From Candidatus Latescibacterota bacterium (GTDB lineage: Bacteria > Latescibacterota > UBA2968), in the NCBI GenBank assembly GCA_965204745.1, contig OZ242010.1:1824001-1888000 (forward strand): 64,000 nt of DNA, read 5' to 3'. Below the pieces are notes generated by a model. That model had not been told where the DNA came from, did not search any database, and worked only from the letters and a program-made list of their open reading frames with translations. Shown piece by piece: positions 11,412 to 64,000 of the stretch (the first letter of the stretch is position 1; the number at the start of each line of letters is the position of its first letter). A program made the position numbers and the translations under genes.

Positions 11412-12189
11412 GGTTGTGTTGACATTTGCGAGCCATGCAACGGAATGGGGGCTTATCGAGAAGATCAAGCCCTATCGCAGGATATGCTCTCGATTTGAGA
11501 AACTCGGACAATCGCTCCTTATCGGGACCTACCCCCCTAGCCCCCCTTCCTGCGAGGAAGGGGGGAACGGTGAGCGGTTTTGCGAGGGGATTGATGAGGG
11601 ATATTTAATCGCTTTATGCCCTCGGTCAATCCATCAGAGCAACCAGAGTGAGAAGCCATCAAAGGAGCTTTACTCCCCCTTTCCTGCGAGGAAGGGGGGA
11701 ACGGTGAGCGGTTTTGCGAGGGGATTGATGAGGGATTTTTAGTCGCTTTATGCCCTCGGTCAATCCATCAGAGCAACCAGAGTGAGAAGTCATCAAAGGA
11801 GCTTTACTCCCCCTTTCCTGCGAGGAAGGGGGGAACGGTGAGCGGTTTTGCGAGGGGATTGATGAGGGATTTTTAGTCGCTTTATGCCCTCGGTCAATGC
11901 CATCAGAGCAACCAGAGCTAGAAGTCATCAAAAGAGCTTTACTCCCCTTTTCCTGCGAGGAAGGGGGGAACGGTGAGCGGTTTTGCGAGGGGATTGATGA
12001 GGGATTTTTAATCGCTTTATGCCCTCGGTCAATCCATCAGAGCAACCAGAGCGATAAGCCATCAAAGGAGCTTTACTCCCCCTTTCCTCGTAGGAAAGGG
12101 GGCCGGGGGGATAGGTCCCCTCGCGCAACGCCATCAGAGCAATTTGCTACTCTGTGCGGAACGTCCAAAAATAAAATGTCAACACGACC
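11412..12189 (+). mobile_element. Hollow IS5 (IS427-group) element carrying a repeat array
   Basis: TIRs GGTTGTGTTGACATTT / AAATGTCAACACGACC, TA on both flanks, transposase scrap LIEKIKPYRRICSRFEKL. Confidence 0.8.
11524..12119. repeat. Tandem array of 4 x ~134 bp units with 5 hairpins and its own terminal inverted repeats
   Basis: Hairpin CCCCYTTCCT-NNN-AGGAAGGGGG with centres near 11551, 11685, 11819, 11954, 12088; ends GGGACCTACCCCCC / GGGGGGATAGGTCCC. Confidence 0.92.
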
Positions 12190-17440: not shown

Positions 17441-17600
17441 GCCACAAAAGGCACGAGCGGGGTACAACTGGCGACAGCCAGTTCAAAGGCACAAAAGGGG
17501 TACAACTGGCGATAGCCAGTTCAAAGGCACAAAAGGGGTACAACTGGCGATAGCCAGTTCAAAGGCACAAAAGGGGTACAACTGGCGACAGCCAGTTCAA
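17441..17600 (+). repeat. Tandem array, 4 x 38 bp hairpin unit
   Basis: GGTACAACTGGCGAYAGCCAGTTCAAAGGCACAAAAGG starting at 17461, 17499, 17537, 17575; no spacers. Confidence 0.92.
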
Positions 17601-17606
17601 GGATAC

Positions 17607-17647
17607 AAAAGCCCGTCTCCGCGGAGGTAAGCGGAGACGGGCTTTTT
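17607..17647. terminator. Bidirectional intrinsic terminator
   Basis: AAAA-GCCCGTCTCCGC-loop-GCGGAGACGGGC-TTTTT between convergent genes. Confidence 0.85.
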
Positions 17648-18904: not shown

Positions 18905-18920
18905 GATGTGTCCTTTGAAA

Positions 18921-18978
18921 GAGGCAAGAGGTGAGAGGCAAGAGGCAAGAGGCAAGAGGCAAGAGGTAAGAGGTAAGA
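18921..18978. repeat. Heptamer microsatellite (GAGGYRA)n
   Basis: About 8 units between argB and argD. Confidence 0.9.
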
Positions 18979-19932: not shown

Positions 19933-19979
19933 TCAGTAGTCAGTGGTCAGTGGTCAGTGGTCAGTGGTCAGTGGTCAGT
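19933..19979. repeat. Heptamer microsatellite (TCAGTGG)n
   Basis: About 6 units between argC and argB, capped by GTCAGTCCCC. Confidence 0.9.
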
Positions 19980-21660: not shown

Positions 21661-21779
21661 TATCAACCCGTGTGTTCCCTGCCTCTCCACCCAGCCGCCC
21701 AAGTGCGATCCCTTCCCGACACCGCCCCGCCGTGTGCGTGCCCTGCCCCGCTCGCCTGTCGTCAACTTGACGATGGCCC

Positions 21780-21870
21780 TCTTGCGTCTCACGTCTTGCC
21801 TCTCGCCTCTCACCTCTCGCCTCTCACGTCTCACGTCTCGCCTCTTGCGTCTCATGTCTCGCCTCTCATC
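21780..21870. repeat. Degenerate heptamer microsatellite (CSTCTYR)n
   Basis: About 13 mixed units CCTCTCG/CGTCTCA/CCTCTTG. Confidence 0.85.
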
Positions 21871-21873
21871 TCT

Positions 21874-22078
21874 GGCGCATGGTCTCTGTCTGTCTCGAAA
21901 CCACCGGGCTTTATCGCTTGGCGGTGGCCTTGGCCTTACATCGGCATCGCCGCACGCAGGTCATGGTCGTCAATCCCCATGCGATGATCAAGTACGCACA
22001 GCGGCATGACCAAGATTTTGAGGGCGAGAAATTCTATCGGATCACCGCGCAATCCCCTTGACCTTTAAGAGAGTATCT
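21874..22078 (+). mobile_element. Internally deleted IS110 remnant with intact right end
   Basis: In-frame fusion of MVSVCLE..VVNP..KYAQ to RHDQDFEGEKFYRIT, both matching the transposase at 55730-56737; ends TTGACC..AGAGTAT-CT. Confidence 0.9.
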
Positions 22079-28174: not shown

Positions 28175-28276
28175 GTAAGGTGAGAGGTGAGAGGCAAGAG
28201 GTGAGAGGCAAGAGGTGAGAGGCAAGAGGTGAGAGGCAAGAGGTGAGAGGCAAGAGGTGAGAGGCAAGAGGTGAGA
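28166..28276. repeat. Alternating heptamer microsatellite (GAGGTGA-GAGGCAA)n
   Basis: 14-bp higher-order repeat, about 6 copies plus partial units. Confidence 0.92.
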
Positions 28277-29926: not shown

Positions 29927-29965
29927 GCTGACCACTGACCACTGACTACTGACCACTGACCACTG
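29927..29965. repeat. Heptamer microsatellite (CTGACCA)n
   Basis: About 5 units preceded by GGGGGCTGAC. Confidence 0.85.
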
Positions 29966-38400: not shown

Positions 38401-38645
38401 AAGGCGGGAGACGAAAGGCGGAAGACGGGAGAAGCAAGACGGGAGAAGGCATCGCCCCTACACACTGCTCGCCTTTGAACTAGCTATCGCCAGTTGTACC
38501 CCGCTCGTGCCTTTTGTGCTTTTTGTGGCTGTCGCCTTTGAACTGGCTGTCGCCTTTGAACTAGCTGTCGCCTTTTGTGCTTTTTGTGGCTGTCGCCTTT
38601 GAACTGGCTGTCGCCTTTTGTGCCTTTTGTGCTTTTTGTGACTAA
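38384..38645. repeat. Repeat cluster: purine heptamers, REP-like hairpin, reversed 38-bp units, TTTTGTGCY nonamers
   Basis: GGGAGA-based heptamers, GCCCCTACA, repeated CCTTTGAACTRGCTRTCG. Confidence 0.8.
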
Positions 38646-52475: not shown

Positions 52476-53459
52476 ATGCGAATTAAGAGTTGAATCCATC
52501 GCGTACTTGTCTTTTCTTGAGGGCTCAGTCATTTCACCCTTAAAGGAAGGAGCACGCGATGGATTGGCAAGATAAACTCATTCACTTGTATGTCTATATT
52601 TGTCAGCAGTATGACCAAAAGCATCTGTGGTTTTATACGGAACGCATGAGCAATAACGATACGCCGACCTTCACAGATGAAGAAGTGCTGACGATCTATT
52701 TGTTTGGGATCATGCAACAGCACACGCAGATCAAGGCGATTTATACCTATACCAAGGATCATCTTTCCGACTGGTTTCCCCATCTGCCCACTTATGCAGG
52801 CTATATCCAGCGGTTGAACCGCTTGTGTGTGGTCTTCGCGCCATTGATTGAACAAATCCAAAAGGACAGTCCCGCAACCGATCTCTCTGAACACACCTAC
52901 TTGGTGGATTCCATGCCGATTGTCATGGCACAATCGGCACGCAGCGGTCAGGCGTGTGTGGCCGAAGAACAACTGGCCAACAAAGGCCGCTGCGCTTCCA
53001 AAAAGATGTGGTATTACGGCACCAAACTGCACATTGTCGCACAAGACCGTGAGAACGGCCTCCCGAAAGCAGAGTACATCGGCTTGACAGGTGCAGCAGA
53101 GCATGACCTGACCGCTTTGCGACAAGTCTTACCCGTTTTGCGTGATGGACACCTCTACGGCGATAAAATCTACGCCGATCAGCCCTTAAAAGACACGCTT
53201 AGCAAACAGCAGAACCTGATCTTCGAGACGCCGGTGAAGCGCAAGAAGGGACAAGAAAGCCTGACCGAAGCCGAAAAAGACTATTCTCGGGCGGTTTCGA
53301 GCATACGACAGCCGATTGAGGCCTTGTTCAGTTGGATTGAACGAAAGACGAACATCTCGATGGCGTCTCGGGTACGATCCTATGAGGGCTTACTCGTTCA
53401 TGTCTTTGGGCGATTGACCGCGGCTTGCTTCTTACTCGCTTTCTACTCTTAATTCGCAT
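52476..53459 (+). mobile_element. IS982-family element, 984 bp, intact; TSD TGTCA
   Basis: TIRs ATGCGAATTAAGAGT / ACTCTTAATTCGCAT; TGTCA on both flanks within (TGTCAGT)n. Confidence 0.93.
52559..53452 (+). CDS. IS982-family DDE transposase
   Basis: FTDEE, VDSMPI, YYG.KLH, HD, GDK.Y, RQPIE..FS. Confidence 0.92.
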   Translation: MDWQDKLIHLYVYICQQYDQKHLWFYTERMSNNDTPTFTDEEVLTIYLFGIMQQHTQIKAIYTYTKDHLSDWFPHLPTYAGYIQRLNRLCVVFAPLIEQIQKDSPATDLSEHTYLVDSMPIVMAQSARSGQACVAEEQLANKGRCASKKMWYYGTKLHIVAQDRENGLPKAEYIGLTGAAEHDLTALRQVLPVLRDGHLYGDKIYADQPLKDTLSKQQNLIFETPVKRKKGQESLTEAEKDYSRAVSSIRQPIEALFSWIERKTNISMASRVRSYEGLLVHVFGRLTAACFLLAFYS

Positions 53460-53522
53460 TGTCAGTTGTCAGTTGTCAGTTGTCAGTTGACTAATTCTAA
53501 CGAACCATAGCGGTGGGGAGCG

Positions 53523-54892: not shown

Positions 54893-55633
54893 ATGGATTT
54901 GGTTCGCAAAATTTTGCGCGAAGCCGCCCTGTTTTGCGCGTGTGCCATCTTTGTGGCAGGCGTCGGGTTGATCCTCATGGATCAAATCGTCATGCCGCGC
55001 TACGTGCGCCAAGGCGTGGAAGTAACCGTGCCCGATCTCAAAGGACTGACACCCGAGCAGGCACGGGCGCGGTTGCAGGCAGAGGGCCTGCACATGAAAG
55101 AACGCGAACCGCGATGGGATGCGTCCATGCCCGCGGGGCAAATCGCGTGGCAAAACCCGGCCGCGCTGTCGCACGTCAAGCCCCATCGCACGGTCTATGT
55201 CGCGCCGAGTTTGGGCGAGCGTCTGTACGCCGTGCCGGATCTTCGCAACCGGCCCTTGCGACAGGCGCGGTTGTGGATCGCCCGAGCAGAATTGGCGGTC
55301 GGCGAGGTCATCGAGATGGCCTCGGCAGAGATCGAGGAAGGCAATATCATCGAGCAGACGCCCAAAGCCGGCGAGCAAGTCGTCCACGGGACGCCGGTCG
55401 CGCTCACAGTGAGCACCGGGCCACATCGCGCTTTTGTCGCCATGCCCGTGGTGGAGGAACTCAAATTGGACGACGCGCGGCGTTTGTTGTCCTCCCTCGG
55501 CCTGCGCGCAGACAATATCCGCTACGAATTTAGCACCGCGTACGAACCCGACGTCGTCATTCGCCAAGACCCCGAACCCGACACGCCGATCAAACGCGGG
55601 ACAAGCGTGCAACTTGTCGTGAGTAAGTTGTGA
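54893..55633 (+). CDS. Membrane-anchored triple PASTA domain protein
   Basis: N-terminal TM; three VP.L.G...A...L..G.I..Q.P..G-type repeats. Confidence 0.9.
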   Translation: MDLVRKILREAALFCACAIFVAGVGLILMDQIVMPRYVRQGVEVTVPDLKGLTPEQARARLQAEGLHMKEREPRWDASMPAGQIAWQNPAALSHVKPHRTVYVAPSLGERLYAVPDLRNRPLRQARLWIARAELAVGEVIEMASAEIEEGNIIEQTPKAGEQVVHGTPVALTVSTGPHRAFVAMPVVEELKLDDARRLLSSLGLRADNIRYEFSTAYEPDVVIRQDPEPDTPIKRGTSVQLVVSKL

Positions 55634-55696
55634 AAGGCGTAAAGGCGTAAAGGCGTAAAGGCGTAAAGGCGTAAAGGCGTAAAGGCGTAAAGGCGT
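55633..55696. repeat. Octamer microsatellite (AAAGGCGT)8
   Basis: Eight perfect units counted. Confidence 0.95.
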
Positions 55697-55729
55697 GAGA
55701 GGTAAGAGGCAAGATACTCTCTTAAAAGG

Positions 55730-56737
55730 TCAAGGGGTTTTCGGGGTGATTCGATAGAATTTTTCGCCCTCAAAATCTTGGTCATGGCGCAACATGCCCC
55801 AGATCGAATGGAGCAACTTTCGCATCACCGCAACGATAGCCTGCAAAGGTTTCTTGCCGCGGGCGATGAGTTGGTCATAGAAGGCTTTGACATGGCCTTC
55901 GTGTCTGATGGCCACCCAGGCAGGCATATAGAGGGCATGGCGGAGGTACTTATTCCCGGTTTTCGAGATGCGTCTTTGTGGATTGGCGGTTCCGGATTGT
56001 TTGGGTTTGGGATCCAGGCCTGCATGTGCGACCCACTGGGGCGGTTGCATCTCCTCTGGCAAAAGGGTCAACTCGGCCAAGAGCCGCAAGGCACTCGTTT
56101 GCGCGATGCCAGGCGTCGAGCAGAGGCGTTGGTAGGCACGCTTGAGGGGCTCATCGTGCAAAACGAGATCGAGGGCTTGGCTTTCCAAGTATGCAATCCG
56201 GCGTTTGAAGTGTCGAATATTCACCTGAATATCGCGTGCGATGAGACGTGTGCTGCGGATGTGGTAGCTCTGCGCGTGGTTGCGGCTCTGTTCGCGGATG
56301 ATCTCCTGCTTGAGTTGGTCAATGCGTCTGGTGAGGGCTTGCAGTTGAAGCCGTTGCTCGCTCGGCGCTTGCCAAGGCACAAAAGGCATGCGCTCGGCAT
56401 AGTCGAGGATCAACAACGCATCCTTCGCATCCGTCTTCGCCCGTTGCATGCAGGCTTGGGCGTACTTGCTCATCGCTTTGGGATTGACGACCATGACCTT
56501 TGTGTGGCGATGCCGATGCAAGGCCAAGGCCACCCCCAAACTGTAAAGCCCGGTCGCTTCGAGGCACACAGAGACCATGTGCCCGCCCTTCGTGAGCCAC
56601 TTCAGCAACCGCTTATGCGCTTGGGGATCATTGGCAAAGGTCGCTTGCATGACAGCTTGTCCGGGTCTGGACAGGGCAACGGACAACGTGCGGGCACTGA
56701 CATCAATGCCGGCAAAAGCGGGGTGAGATTTCGACAT
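55730..56737 (-). CDS. IS110 DEDD recombinase/transposase
   Basis: GIDVS, CLEATG, KTD.KDA, QSGT serine, ISKTGN, A..RKL; AGGAGG RBS. Confidence 0.95.
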   Translation of the reverse strand: MSKSHPAFAGIDVSARTLSVALSRPGQAVMQATFANDPQAHKRLLKWLTKGGHMVSVCLEATGLYSLGVALALHRHRHTKVMVVNPKAMSKYAQACMQRAKTDAKDALLILDYAERMPFVPWQAPSEQRLQLQALTRRIDQLKQEIIREQSRNHAQSYHIRSTRLIARDIQVNIRHFKRRIAYLESQALDLVLHDEPLKRAYQRLCSTPGIAQTSALRLLAELTLLPEEMQPPQWVAHAGLDPKPKQSGTANPQRRISKTGNKYLRHALYMPAWVAIRHEGHVKAFYDQLIARGKKPLQAIVAVMRKLLHSIWGMLRHDQDFEGEKFYRITPKTP

Positions 56738-56794
56738 GGGGGCCTCCTGTGATGAGGGGGTTGTAAGGGATCTGGTGCGCGCTCGGGGTCGCGT

Positions 56795-56990
56795 CCCGAC
56801 CATTGACGCCAAGTCTACCGGTCTTGTATATGCAGCCTCAAGGGGCTTAGATACTCTTCGGCATAGACCCGGCGGTCGGGGGGCCTATCTTACCTACAAG
56901 GTCATCGCCTTCAAGAGGGGCCGGCCTTCCCCGAGCCGGGCATCAAGATGGCTTATCTCGATACGAGGGCGCAACTCCTAATTAACCCTT
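56795..56990 (-). ncRNA. IS110 bridge RNA (boundaries approximate)
   Basis: Donor loop guides AGAGTATCT (56857-56849) and ATACAAGA (56829-56822) match the element ends; target loop guides GGCCCCTCT (56922-56914) and AGGTAAGA (56895-56888) match the insertion site; closing stems visible. Confidence 0.85.
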
Positions 56991-57119
56991 ACTTCCAAGA
57001 TACAAGAGGGGAGAAGGCCAGCCGATTACCCCAAAATGCGAGGAGTGGATCGTAGGGACAGGCACAGGGCCTGTCCAAATCCGCGGTTAGCGAAACAAAT
57101 TAACCCTTTCGAGAAAGGA

Positions 57120-59096
57120 ATGACGATGTCGAAGAAAATCATTGCTTATGGCATGGACGGTTTTATCACGCCGATGATGAAGCATTTTGCCGATGAGGGA
57201 TCGTTGCCGACGTTTAAGCGGTTGATTGACGAGGGCGCGGTCAATGAGACGTTTCCGTCCTTTCCGGTGTGGACGCCCACGAATTGGGCCACCCTCTCCA
57301 CGGGCGCGCACACGGGTACGCACAGCGTCACGCGCTGGCGAGTCGAGGTCGCGCCGGGCGAGCGCGTCAATTCGTTTGACGGTCGCGCCAACAATGCCCA
57401 ACGCATCTGGAACGCCCTTGAGCGCGAGGGCCTGAAAGGCGTGGCCCTGCACTATCCGGCAGCGCATCCGTCCGGCGTGGAAACCGGGTATGTGATCGAC
57501 GGGTTCGGGCATCCTGGGCACGCGAGTACGGATTATGAAATCGCCGCGGCGCAGGCTTATACCACGGCGGCGCAGGGCGAGGAGACCGTGCAGATGGACC
57601 ACGACGGCACAGCCGTGCGCCGCAGGCAGCGCAGCATTGCATCCATCCCCGCGCTCGCGCCGGCCAAGGGCTGGACAAATCTTCCGCAAAGCGCGTTGCC
57701 GCCGCTCGCTTCTGCCATCGAGATCCACGCGCGCTTGGGCGGCGACATCAATCGCTTTTACCTGCTCGCATTTGCCCATACAGGCAATGGATACGACGCG
57801 CTACGGGTCTGCCGATCAAGAGATGGCAACGACCACATCGCGGAGGCCAAGACCGGTTCATGGAGCAATTGGGCCATTGAACCGTTCCACATCGCGGGCC
57901 GCACACAGCGCGCCGCAGTGCGTTTCAAACTCCTCGAACTCGAACCCGATGGCACGCACCTCAAGCTGTACCGCTCGCAGATCACGTACGCGGATGGCTT
58001 CACCTATCCAGACGATTTGGCCGCCGAACTCATCCACCGCTTTGGCCCCTATCAAGAACACGCCTCGATGACGCCCTATACCGCGGGCATGACCGATTTT
58101 GACACCGCGCTTGAAGAATGCGCGTATCAAGGCATGTGGTTTGCCGATGTCGCCAATTACATGCTCCAAGAAAAAGATGCCAATTTCTTCATCTGTCACT
58201 GGCATCTCTACGACTACCTCAACCACATCCACCTCGATGGCGTCGATCCGGTGTGCCCTGCATACCGTGCGGACAAGGCGAACGCGGTCATGGACTTGTT
58301 CCGCAAGGCGTACATCGTCGGGGACGAGGTCCTCAAACGCCTGTGGGATGCCGCGGATGAGACCACCTGTGTCGGCGTGCTGTCCGATCACGGCGCGTCG
58401 CCAGATGTGCGGATTGCCAACATCCGAAAATTCCTGCACGACAAGGGATTCACCGTGCTCAAAGCAGATGCCAGCGACGGGGTTGAACGAGACGAAGTCC
58501 TCGAAAGCGAAATCGACTTTGAAAAAACCCGTGCGTACCTCAAAGACGACAAGGGCTTCGATATATGGATCAACGCCGAACCCGGCCCCGAGTTTGACGC
58601 GATTGAACGCGATCTCCTCCTCGCCCTCCGCACTTGGGTCGATGAAGAGGTCGGGCGCAATGTCATCGCCATTGCCCTGCCCAAGCGCGACGCGTACATG
58701 CTCGGGCAATGGGGCGATCAGTGCGGCGATGTGGTTTTCGCATGGGATCACGGCTATGTCAGCGGGTACTACGGCCAATGGAAGGGCATTGTGGGCGGCG
58801 GGTGCGTGGGCGCGCCCGAGGTTTTCGGCGCGCATCACGGGGGCTTTATCCCCACGCGCAGCGAGATTTCTTCGAGTTTTGGATCGTTTCACTTGGCGGG
58901 CCCGGGCATCAAAAAGGGCTACGAACGCCCGACGGACAAACTCGGGTATATCCACGCGGTCGATGTGGTGCCCACGCTTTGCCACCTCTTCGGCATCGCC
59001 CCACCCGACCAAAGCCAAGGCGCGATTGCCTACGATATCCTGCAAGGTCACGAGATGGTGCGGAAAAGAGCCACAAAAGGCACGAGCGGGGTATAA
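57120..59096 (+). CDS. Alkaline phosphatase superfamily / type I phosphodiesterase
   Basis: YGMDG, TPTNWATLSTG, D..NH, LSDHG, GAHH, DVVPT; AAGGA RBS. Confidence 0.85.
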   Translation: MTMSKKIIAYGMDGFITPMMKHFADEGSLPTFKRLIDEGAVNETFPSFPVWTPTNWATLSTGAHTGTHSVTRWRVEVAPGERVNSFDGRANNAQRIWNALEREGLKGVALHYPAAHPSGVETGYVIDGFGHPGHASTDYEIAAAQAYTTAAQGEETVQMDHDGTAVRRRQRSIASIPALAPAKGWTNLPQSALPPLASAIEIHARLGGDINRFYLLAFAHTGNGYDALRVCRSRDGNDHIAEAKTGSWSNWAIEPFHIAGRTQRAAVRFKLLELEPDGTHLKLYRSQITYADGFTYPDDLAAELIHRFGPYQEHASMTPYTAGMTDFDTALEECAYQGMWFADVANYMLQEKDANFFICHWHLYDYLNHIHLDGVDPVCPAYRADKANAVMDLFRKAYIVGDEVLKRLWDAADETTCVGVLSDHGASPDVRIANIRKFLHDKGFTVLKADASDGVERDEVLESEIDFEKTRAYLKDDKGFDIWINAEPGPEFDAIERDLLLALRTWVDEEVGRNVIAIALPKRDAYMLGQWGDQCGDVVFAWDHGYVSGYYGQWKGIVGGGCVGAPEVFGAHHGGFIPTRSEISSSFGSFHLAGPGIKKGYERPTDKLGYIHAVDVVPTLCHLFGIAPPDQSQGAIAYDILQGHEMVRKRATKGTSGV

Positions 59097-59244
59097 GAGA
59101 GCCACAAAAGGCACAAAAGGCACAAAAGGGGTACAACTGGCAACAGCCAGTTCAAAGGCACAAAAGGGGTACAACTGGCGATAGTCCGTTCAAAGGCGGG
59201 CCGTGTGTAGGGGCGATGCCCCCGTGCTCGTCCAAAGATACAAG
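59068..59244 (+). repeat. Nonamers + 38-bp units + GTAG-REP-like hairpin + AGATACAAG
   Basis: Same family as 17441-17600, 28289 and 11323; overlaps the 3' end of the preceding gene. Confidence 0.85.
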
Positions 59245-61970: not shown

Positions 61971-62035
61971 CAGTTGTCAGTTGTCAGTTGTCAGTTGTCA
62001 GTTGTCAGTTGTCAGTTGTCAGTTGTCAGTTGTCA
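61971..62035. repeat. Heptamer microsatellite (CAGTTGT), about 9 units
   Basis: Perfect tandem units. Confidence 0.95.
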
Positions 62036-63017
62036 ATGCGAATCAAGAGTAGAAAGCGAGTAAGAAGCAAGCCGCGGTCAATCGCCCAAAGACATGAACG
62101 AGTAAGCCCTCATAGGATCGTACCCGAGACGCCATCGAGATGTTCGTCTTTCGTTCAATCCAACTGAACAAGGCCTCTATAGGCTGTCGCATGCTCGAAA
62201 CCGCCCGAGAAAAGTCTTTTTCGGCCTCGGTCAGGCTTTCTTGTCCCTTCTTTCGCTTCACCGGCGTCTCGAAGATCAGGTTCTGCTGCTTGCTAAGCGT
62301 ATCTTTTAAGGGCTGATCGGCGTAGAGTTTATCGCCGTAGAGGTGTCCATCACGCAAAACGGGTAAGACTTGTCGCAAAGCGGTCAGGTCATGCTCTGCT
62401 GCGCCTGTCAAGCCGAAGTACTCTGCTTTGGGCAGGCCATTCGCTCGGTCTTGTGCGACAATGTGCAGTTTAGTGCCGTAATACCACATCTTTTTGGAAG
62501 CGCAGCGGCCTTTGTTGGCCCGTTGTTCTTCAGCCACACATGCCTTTCCGCTACGTGCCGATTGTGCCATGACAATCGGCATGGAATCCACCAAGTAGGT
62601 GTGTTCACAGACATCGGTTGCGGGACTGTCCTTTTGGATCTGTTCAATCAATGGCGCGAAGACCACACACAAGCGGTTCAACCGCTGGATATAGCCTGCA
62701 TAAGTGGGCAGATTGGGAAACCAGTCGAACAGATGATCCTTGGTATAGGTATAAATCGCCTTGATCTGCGTGTGCTGTTGCATGATCCCAAACAAATAGA
62801 TCGTCAGCACTTCTTCATCTGTGAAGGTCGGCGTGTCGTTGTTACTCATGCGTTCCGTATAAAACCACAGATGCTTTTGGTCATACTGCTGACAAATATA
62901 GACATACAAGTGAAAGTTTATCTTGCCAATCCATCGCGTGCTCCTTCCTTTAAGGGTGAAATGACTGAGCCCTCAAGAAAAGACAAGTACGCGATGGATT
63001 CAACTCTTAATTCGCAT
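62036..63017 (-). mobile_element. IS982-family element, 982 bp; TSD TGTCA
   Basis: Same TIRs as 52476-53459 (one substitution), opposite orientation. Confidence 0.93.
62043..62934 (-). pseudogene. IS982 transposase, frameshifted near codon 7
   Basis: AAACTTTCAC versus AAACTCATTCAC in the intact copy: 2-bp deletion after the ATG at 62934. Confidence 0.85.
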
Positions 63018-63290
63018 TGTCAGTTGTCAGTTGTCAGTTGTCAGTTGTCAGTTGTCAGTTGTCAGTTGTCAGTTGTCAGTTGTCAGTTGTCAGTTGTCAG
63101 TTGTCAGTTGTCAGTTGTCAGTTGTCAGTTGTCAGTTGTCAGTTGTCAGTTGTCAGTTGTCAGTTGTCAGTTGTCAGTTGTCAGTTGTCAGTTGTCAGTT
63201 GTCAGTTGTCAGTTGTCAGTTGTCAGTTGTCAGTTGTCAGTTGTCAGTTGTCAGTTGTCAGTTGTCAGTTGTCAGTTGTCAGTTGTCAGT
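63018..63290. repeat. Heptamer microsatellite (TGTCAGT)39
   Basis: 273 bp of perfect units. Confidence 0.95.
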
Positions 63291-64000
63291 GGCGTTGTTG
63301 CATAAATGTTGTCGTGGCGAAGTTCGTCCCTTTCCCGCGAGATTTAAGCCCTTCTTTCTATGGGATAGGACACGGGTTTCGCGATCCTCATCATGCGATT
63401 GAGCACCGCACATCCCAACAGTGCTTCCGTTTCTTGGTTCTTCTGATTTCGTGCGCGCAACTGCCGCCCAATGAGTTGCTTATAGCGGCCTATGTGGGTT
63501 TCAACGACCGAGCGACGATGATAGCCACTGGTGCGTTTCCACTTTCGGCGGCCTTGACGCCGGATGGCTCGGATGATTTCATCGCGGGCGAGGGGGGGCG
63601 CCTTCCTGTTTCCGTGTTGTTCAATTTTCGCGTCATGGCGCGGGGGAATCAGAGGTCGGATGGGGGCTCCTTGTTTGGGGGCGGCGCATGTGTTGAAGAC
63701 CTTGCGTTTGTCATAGCCGCCATCTGCGCCCAGCGTATGGACAGGGGCCGGGACTTGATCGAGCAAGGGGTTGACCTGCGAAGCGTCATCAACGCTTGCC
63801 GAAGTCAGGGTCTGTGCGACAAGCTCCCCGGTGGCCGCATTGACGCCGATGTGCAATTTGCGCCAAGTCCTGCGCTTGCAAAAGCCGTGTTGACGCACCT
63901 TCCATTCCCCTTCGCCATACCCTTTCAGGCCGGTAGAATCCACCACTAAGTGGATCGGCGCGTGACGGGATTGGACAGGTAAATCCACATTCAAATCGCC
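63291..64000 (-). mobile_element. IS5-family (IS903 group) element, runs off the window
   Basis: End GGCGTTGTTGCATAAATG resembles the IS903 TIR GGCTTTGTTGAATAAATC as recalled. Confidence 0.88.
63344..64000 (-). CDS. IS5/IS903-group DDE transposase (5' truncated by the window edge)
   Basis: VDSTGLK.YGEGEW, RRTWRKLH, ADGGYD, GYHRRS.VET. Confidence 0.93.
   Translation of the reverse strand, partial: GDLNVDLPVQSRHAPIHLVVDSTGLKGYGEGEWKVRQHGFCKRRTWRKLHIGVNAATGELVAQTLTSASVDDASQVNPLLDQVPAPVHTLGADGGYDKRKVFNTCAAPKQGAPIRPLIPPRHDAKIEQHGNRKAPPLARDEIIRAIRRQGRRKWKRTSGYHRRSVVETHIGRYKQLIGRQLRARNQKNQETEALLGCAVLNRMMRIAKPVSYPIERRA

Follow-up and report, generated by a model that had tools for sequence, protein, structure and literature searches.

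An IS110-family element of a Latescibacterota genome with a predicted bridge RNA that matches unit junctions in heptamer microsatellite arrays

IS621 of Escherichia coli is an IS110-family insertion sequence (IS) whose left end encodes an RNA with a target-binding loop followed by a donor-binding loop, both loops carrying left and right guides that include a CT core (Durrant et al. 2024, PMC11208160; Hiraizumi et al. 2024, PMC11208158). According to PMC11208160, the natural target of IS621 is a repeated intergenic sequence, the repetitive extragenic palindromic (REP) element, as the sequence-only reading of the DNA studied here had stated; a natural mismatch is tolerated, the right end contains a -35-like box, and the joined ends form a junction promoter. 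Here we describe an element of the same architecture in a 64,000-nt window (contig OZ242010.1; all coordinates below are positions in this window unless they carry the prefix G000) of the genome of a Candidatus Latescibacterota bacterium (G000, a single contig of 5.48 Mb). From its observed anatomy, the complementarity of its guides to donor and target, the census of its sites, the covariation of guides with targets and the conserved structure of the RNA, we consider it very likely that this element is an IS621-type insertion sequence of the IS110 family that is active or was so recently; this judgement applies jointly to the whole explanation, in which a bridge RNA directs the element to junctions between the units of heptamer arrays.

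The whole element, including the CT core at both junctions, occupies 55712..57006 on the minus strand (1,295 bp, of which 1,293 bp are the element proper). Read on that strand, it starts with CT-TGTATCTTGG (from 57006 downward) and finishes with AAGAGAGTAT-CT (ending at 55712). The ends of the element (TGTATC... and ...GAGTAT) are not inverted repeats, and comparison of copies with their flanks revealed no target duplication. The recombinase open reading frame (ORF; 55730..56737, minus strand) encodes 335 aa with RuvC-like DEDD and Tnp domains, and the Pfam profiles DEDD_Tnp_IS110 (PF01548, E = 1.2e-24) and Transposase_20 (PF02371, E = 4.8e-20) both exceeded their cut-offs. In phmmer comparisons with PDB chains, the recombinase matched ISCro4 (PDB 9t56, the best solved-structure match, E = 7.6e-40 over residues 7-326) and IS621 (E = 5.8e-36). 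ISCro4, which we compared by protein alone, we take to be the engineered bridge recombinase of human-genome work. Residues D12, E60, D103, D106 and S248-G249 of the recombinase align with D11, E60, D102, D105 and S241-G242 of IS621, assuming a +2 offset of the IS621 PDB chain numbering and using the catalytic residues named in PMC11208158; both the domain pair and the catalytic residues are common to the two elements. All four guides described below lie upstream of the ORF, and only 18 nt lie beyond the stop codon at the right end. Elements of the IS1111 group, which are guided by seekRNAs and belong to the wider IS110 family, have their RNA downstream of the recombinase gene and carry short, subterminal inverted repeats at their ends. 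The present element differs from them in its upstream RNA, and no right-end guide RNA of the IS1111 kind was found in it. ISPpu10 of Pseudomonas putida, likewise an IS110 element, has all its insertions at one conserved intergenic repeat, for which a structural check has been proposed (10.64898/2026.03.19.712850), whereas the target here is a simple-sequence array with many unit variants. At the level of sequence, each of the features that define IS621-type IS110 elements was found.

[quoted passage not shown] The left donor guide matches in 51/52 copies; the sole donor-guide mismatch is AGCGUAUCU in a copy with target-guide variant D (G000:C1:1297034), whose own right end still reads AGAGTAT. 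The donor is the same as that of IS621 at 13/14 positions, the IS621 donor ACAGTATCTTGTAT, given in the sequence-only reading, being printed in the Methods of PMC13396178. At the handshake position, AU (56888-56887) is complementary to donor positions 6-7 (the AT of AGAGTAT), the same pair as in wild-type IS621.

The second loop holds the two target guides that had been proposed for it. The left target guide GGCCCCUCU (DNA GGCCCCTCT, 56914..56922) is followed by a U at 56913 that matches target position +1, and the right target guide AGGUA with the core-binding AG (DNA AGGTAAGA, 56888..56895) complements CT-TACCT and reads TGCCT with a G-U wobble; together the two guides specify CCCCT-CT-TACCT. 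Around the window copy, the left half of the target is CTTCTCCCCT (57007..57016, minus strand) and the right half comprises two heptamer units and a further base, TGCCTCT TACCTCT C (55697..55711, minus strand), both assigned from the sequence and from the genome copies. The empty site reconstructed from them, CTCCCCT-CT-TGCCT, pairs with 7/9 left-guide bases and requires one G-U wobble on the right, exactly as originally read. Compared with IS621, whose target is the REP palindrome, the element recognizes a junction in a 7-bp tandem array; its left pairing runs from -5 to +1 rather than over seven left positions, and its right guide extends five bases past the core rather than two (PMC11208160).

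In the RNAalifold consensus of 24 left ends, each of the two loops proposed from the sequence has a closing stem and a distal hairpin. Besides the outer stem, GGCC/GGCC closes the target loop, whose hairpin is AAGG/CCUU, and a long stem closes the donor loop, which likewise has a hairpin. Over 36 curated pairs, 97.7% of cells were paired and 8 pairs had changed on both sides; 0/500 shuffles reached the observed values, and slid partners gave 21-46%. Across the left ends of G000 and its relatives, the scaffold and the donor guides are conserved and the two target-guide segments are variable. As in IS621, the right end contains a -35-like hexamer (TTGACC, 55728..55733, minus strand, overlapping the stop codon), and a -10-like hexamer stands at the start of the left end (TATCTT, 56997..57002, minus strand), both read on the sequence; in the joined ends they would be 18 nt apart, and the same hexamers are 17 nt apart in relatives. 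This arrangement suggests a circular intermediate that may carry a junction promoter across the joined ends. In the integrated copy, a promoter scan returned 2 promoter-like sites vs 0.7 expected, neither of them in the left end, and a terminator scan returned 0 terminators.

By blastn over the genome, we identified 52 full-length copies and ~20 fragments of the element. Identity to the window copy is 100% for 30 of the full-length copies (over exactly the span 55712..57006), 99.07-99.92% for 7, 96.1% for 8, ~95% for 2 and ~89% for 5; the 335-aa ORF is intact in 51/52, and no DEDD-domain match of the genome (57 in total) falls outside this family. The CT core is present at both junctions in 52/52 full-length copies, and the consensus of their flanks is TCTCCCCT, CT, T[A/G]CCTCT. 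In the corresponding logo (T-C-T-C-C-C-C-T, CT, T-R-C-C-T-C-T), positions -3 to -1 and +3 do not vary, and the flanks continue outward with a period of 7 bases on either side of the insertion sites. Defining an in-register unit as NNC[CGT]T[CT]T, we counted at least 3 units at the reconstructed empty site in 48/52 copies, at least 4 in 42/52 and at least 6 in 25/52, the target itself contributing two of the counted units; by the same definition the genome contains 686 arrays (0.51% of its length). Beyond the array, the flanks of the 30 identical copies are different in each. This collection of all copies with a table of their flanks, the check proposed in the sequence-only reading, favours its interpretation, both in the array contexts and in the covariation of guides with flanks described below.

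To compare occupied with available sites, guide match was scored over the 10 non-core positions, with 3,756 empty in-register array CT sites as the pool. Scored against their own guides, 43 of the 52 copies are free of mismatches, 23 being perfect and 20 having a single wobble. Among the copies that carry the main guides, 38/45 stand at sites without mismatch, vs 83/3,756 (2.2%) of the empty in-register array sites, and target positions -5 to the core pair with the left guide in 41/45. Effective pairing on the left spans -5 to +1, the core included. The 12-mer CCCCTCTT[A/G]CCT, for which base composition predicts 1.7 occurrences, is found 70 times empty and 37 times split by the element, far beyond chance. 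That a wobble U reads both unit variants, as had been suggested, is borne out by the 45 main-guide copies (A in 20, G in 17). The two variants are not used alike: for the perfect 12-mer CCCCTCTTACCT we counted 20 occupied and 5 empty sites, vs 17 occupied and 65 empty ones for the wobble 12-mer CCCCTCTTGCCT (perfect vs wobble, Fisher p = 1.2e-7), corresponding to occupancy of 80% of perfect sites vs 21% of wobble sites. The G-U wobble is tolerated yet disfavoured, and perfect sites are strongly preferred and nearly exhausted. The tuning of the target loop to heptamer arrays, as first inferred, holds, but not to a generic (CCTCTTA/CCTCTTG)n unit: the real target is a CC-type unit followed by a TA/TG-type unit, a specific junction that only the above 2.2% of empty sites match. 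In the genome, CCCCT-CT-T[A/G]CCT occurs almost only at junctions from a CC-type to a TA/TG-type unit in intergenic (CCTCTNN)n arrays.

Four sets of target guides occur among the 52 copies (A in 45, B in 4, C in 2 and D in 1); this diversity and the number of copies are further differences from IS621. The main set, A, has GGCCCCUCU as its left and AGGUAAGA as its right guide. Copies of variant B (GGCGCCUCU / AAGUAAGA) occupy sites composed of CTCGCCT or CTCACCT, CT, and TACTT, 3/4 of them without mismatch, and one of the two copies of variant C (GGUGCCUCU / AAGUAAGA) matches its site with a single wobble. Variant D (GGUCCCUCU with the following base C / AGGUGAGA) matches its site, CTTCCCT-CT-CACCT, perfectly through three coordinated changes; the base after the left target guide has changed from T to C along with target position +1. 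The sites of the matching B, C and D copies score worse against the main (A) guides.

Close homologues were found in 3/40 related genomes (G018, G016 and G036), and their guides differ together with their sites. G018, a sister species, has 18 full copies with 76-78% amino-acid identity and the guides CUCGCCUCU / AGGGAGA; the left flank is CTCGCCT in 5/18 and C/TTCACCT, a wobble match, in 7/18, the right flank is CCCGT in 14/18, and heptamer arrays surround 17/18 copies, the units being of the (CCTCTCG)n type to the left and (CGTCTCC)n to the right. The 6 copies of G016 (80-84% identity) have the right guide AGAAAAGA in 5/6 and AGGAAAGA in one, with the right flank TTTCT in 5/6; their sites are a non-array repeat, and the left-guide match is poorer. 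In G036, 3 copies with 54% identity have the right guide ACGUUAGA and the right flank AACGT in 3/3. Guides and flanks covary across the four in-genome variants and across species. A set of wider homologues, from one contig scan, comprised 26 loci, of which 25 came from G016 and G018 records and the 26th from a Gemmatimonadota contig (48% identity, left end cut off). In a recombinase tree of 27 rows, which omits one frameshifted copy of 262 aa, the copies of each genome form one of three clades, whose branching is compatible both with ancestral array targeting and with array targeting that arose twice.

The flanks of G018 loci L046-L060 contain a ~55-bp sequence with a left-end-like start, CT-TGTATCTTCGG, then a REP-like hairpin, and the end GATTGCTT-CT; repeats of this sequence adjoin heptamer arrays as well as element copies. 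The sequence could represent a miniature derivative or a remnant, its other end mismatching the left donor half. Two further arrangements of copies were observed in G000. At G000:C1:1121591-1124182, two copies (100% and 96%) stand head to tail with only TACCT between them, the left junction of the second copy reading CT-TACCT-CT. Among the 10 fragments that retain a left end, 4 old ones (88-98%; G000:C1:921770, 1263485, 1433016 and 2089468) have the flank ...[C/G][A/T]TTCCCC followed by CT; three of the four share a repeated non-array context, and their left guides differ from the main one, with one reading GGUUCCCCCUU and matching its flank GTTCCCC-CT at 7/7 positions. These fragment flanks suggest an older, non-microsatellite target that may have resembled that of the G016 relatives.

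Evidence from other populations comes from sequencing runs, which consist of contigs (several are labelled sponge metagenome) and four of which were compared at this locus. In run X1, word depth in the flanks is 103-115 and individual element contigs reach ~2,200-2,700, a contrast consistent with an element in many copies. X3 belongs to another study; here 57014 and 55689 are linked, in a contig at flank depth (11.6), by 11 other letters in place of the element, and another joint skips 55632-55689, equal to seven octamer units; we read X3 as an allele from which the IS is absent and in which both the heptamer and the octamer array are shorter. In X7, which does not cover this locus, 1,258 nt of a contig are the same as 55712-56969, and the flanks are different ones. 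The 30 identical copies, the empty allele of X3 and the other flanks in X7 are indirect signs that RNA-dependent recombination may be active.

The mechanism that we propose from these data would begin with the bridge RNA encoded in the left end. Its donor-binding loop would pair with the joined ends AGAGTAT-CT-TGTAT and its target-binding loop with CCCCT-CT-T[A/G]CCT, and the DEDD/Ser recombinase would exchange strands at the CT core, inserting the element into an array in one fixed orientation and without target duplication. Guide variants that arise in the genome would open other unit junctions. Arrays serving as neutral, renewable landing sites, the "renewable safe harbour" envisaged from the sequence, seem plausible.

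Several results weigh against this explanation or narrow it. The nine copies outside the 43 have one mismatch (n=1), one mismatch and a wobble (n=1), two mismatches (n=4) or three (n=3) against their own guides. Four A copies stand at CTTACCT-CT-TACCT with two mismatches each, two A copies at CCCCT-CT-CCCGT with three, and the second variant C copy sits in a D-type site. Such copies would need action in trans, guide variants that have since been lost, or half-match insertion, of which one copy's RNA acting on another copy would be the simplest; since all copies have the same donor ends, the RNA of any one of them can probably mobilize all. Two truncated copies retain a fifth right guide, ACGGGAGA, that fits CCCCT-CT-CCCGT exactly. 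The non-main variants amount to only 7 copies, and the structural covariation draws on only ~five lineages. The flanks of four of the five 89% copies agree over 20-30 nt, so these copies may not represent independent insertions. The nine-base left guide of the sequence-only reading stands from -5 to the core but not in its leading GG, which has a Watson-Crick pair in 0/52 copies, the target bases opposite being CT, and one possible G-T wobble in 3/52; conservation of target positions -8 to -6 therefore stems from the repeat and not from the guide. The 8 matches from Rfam (E up to 10) are weak; each falls well short of its gathering score and none is a bridge RNA, an outcome that gives no support either way. 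The fold of the single sequence is weakly better than shuffles (z = -2.26, with 7/200 shuffles as good); it pairs the two target guides together via their shared core and was dropped as evidence of structure. Transcription and processing of the bridge RNA are predicted, none of the 24 listed runs being RNA, and the right-to-left end joint of a circle was not seen in the four runs, which as contigs are incapable of showing rare forms.

The element is intergenic, because a PASTA-domain gene ends at 55633 on one side of it and a phosphodiesterase-family gene begins near 57120 on the other. Of the four places at which heptamer arrays had been noted between genes, three contain them, as identified by Tandem Repeats Finder (TRF): a (GCCTCTT)n array at 18919..18978 (period 7, 8.6 copies) and an alternating (TGCCTCT CACCTCT)n array at 28183..28276 (period 14, 6.7 copies, 100% matches), both of the target class and without insertion, and a period-7 array at 21778..21867. 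The fourth, at 55697-55711, has just two units and adjoins an (AAAGGCGT)x8 octamer array (55633..55696; TRF period 8, 8.0 copies, 100% matches) that had gone unmentioned. A degraded, internally deleted copy of the element lies beside the array at 21778-21867 (21874..22078, plus strand), with blastn high-scoring segment pairs at G000 1845874-1845997 (87%) and 1846001-1846078 (91%) and the right flank CACTTCTTACCTCT. Further period-7 arrays in the window include those at 53459-53489, 61971-62035, 63017-63290, 19933-19979 and 29928-29965.

Across the genome we counted 562 period-7 arrays with at least 4 copies and at least 85% match (102.5 per Mb); none of the periods 5, 6 and 8-11 exceeds 9.5 per Mb. 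They comprise ~250 CT-rich (CCTCTNN)n arrays, the target class, and 277 (CAGTNGT)n arrays. In 400-kb samples, the period-7 density is 127.5 per Mb in G018, where almost every one of the 51 arrays is CT-rich, 5 per Mb in G001 (which has no element) and 7.5 per Mb in G016. We counted 528 four-unit CCTCTNN patterns in G000 and 219 in G018, vs 0-1 in each of the other 39 of 41 genomes. Two other insertion sequences are associated with arrays. One, of 1,176 bp with DDE_Tnp_1_5 and DDE_Tnp_1 domains (IS5-like) and inverted ends GGCGTTGTTGCATAAAT, starts at 63291 and runs beyond the window end at 64000 (G000:C1:1887291 onward), inside the (TTGTCAG)n array 63017-63290; 12 of its 17 full copies lie in (CAGTNGT)n with a 9-bp duplication, GTTGTCAGT, and the other 5 lie elsewhere, also with 9-bp duplications. 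The other, at G000:C1:3296974-3298124 (L163; 1,151 bp, HTH and DDE_3 domains split over two frames, IS630-like), occurs once, placed precisely within a (CAGTAGT)n array. The window also has a REP-like hairpin at 57051-57076 on the minus strand, GGACAGGC(5 nt)GCCTGTCC and then CTACG, which has 83 copies in G000 in all; the left-flank hairpin GGACAGGC...GCCTGTCCCTACG was considered as a part of the arrays and dropped, only 9/83 having at least two heptamer units within 60 nt. The remaining tandem repeats of the window (11541-12102, 17447-17611, 38469-38640 and 59116-59197) include a 134-bp unit x4.2, a 38-bp unit (AAAGGCACAAAAGGGGTACAACTGGCGACAGCCAGTTC) at two places and related 43-61-bp repeats.

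The distribution of arrays admits a reversed or two-way causality, in which the recombinase creates, expands or homogenises CT-rich arrays through out-of-register or half-match recombination between neighbouring CT-core units. G000 and G018, the only two genomes with abundant four-unit CCTCTNN patterns, are also the richest in the element (52 and ~19 copies), array density is low in G001 and in G016, whose element is aimed elsewhere, the arrays of the G018 sample are almost all CT-rich, and repeat units of at least 50 bp with boundaries that match the left donor half are described as accumulating beside IS110 elements (preprint 10.64898/2026.08.14.744561). This co-occurrence, however, involves one or two independent lineages and has no statistical weight. 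The (CAGTNGT)n arrays are about equal in number to the CT-rich ones without any IS110 element aimed at them, most of the 686 arrays are without one of the 52 copies, the IS-free allele of X3 retains heptamer units, and known bridge recombination joins donor with target, not target with target. We regard array-making by the recombinase as improbable and think it likelier that the element makes use of arrays that were there before it, given the CAGTNGT arrays, the excess of arrays over copies and the X3 allele. Every CT-rich heptamer unit contains a CT core, and a co-evolution of element and microsatellite, in which the recombinase expands, shuffles or homogenises units and guides radiate to track the variants, is conceivable, though we think it rather unlikely. 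On that reading, the landing of at least three unrelated IS families in the arrays would make heptamer microsatellites a sink for mobile DNA at the level of the genome.

The preference for arrays could also be independent of the RNA, if the element merely survives in arrays or prefers them as neutral DNA or DNA of odd structure, with complementarity as a by-product. The IS5-like element, a DDE element without guide RNA, and the IS630-like element lie in arrays as well, and arrays are therefore generally favoured sites. A general preference would not place 38/45 main-guide copies in the matching 2.2% of in-register sites, guide variants at correspondingly different junctions and the relatives' other guides at other sites, some of them non-array, nor would perfect matches be occupied four times as often as wobble matches; unguided insertion is already contradicted by the covariation, and we give it hardly any credence. 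Equally small is the chance that the left end is not a functional bridge RNA and the copies are relics spread among arrays by segmental duplication or homologous recombination. The extended shared flanks of four of the five 89% copies would be compatible with relics, but the 30 identical copies have different flanks beyond the array, 51/52 ORFs are intact, only the guide segments vary within a conserved scaffold, stem changes are compensatory, and an empty allele exists in another population.

The bridge-RNA mechanism itself is already known. Our literature search found no report of a microsatellite target for an IS110 element or bridge RNA, the supplementary target lists (PMC11208160 Supplementary Data 2), which may hold one, lying outside its scope; it found no report of several guide variants on one repeat landscape or of near-saturated perfect sites, and a search on Latescibacter and repeats likewise found a microsatellite target unreported. 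Within the reach of these searches, a microsatellite target and a radiation of guides in a single genome are both new. Bridge recombinases are under development as programmable genome-writing tools, and little is known of how their guides evolve in nature; with 52 insertions, at least four guide variants, thousands of near-cognate sites and a measurable G-U wobble penalty, this genome is a natural specificity experiment. The variants of the repeat unit form a graded landscape of sites, which slippage can create or destroy. The presence of three unrelated element families in heptamer arrays makes the idea of a safe landing zone testable in G000.

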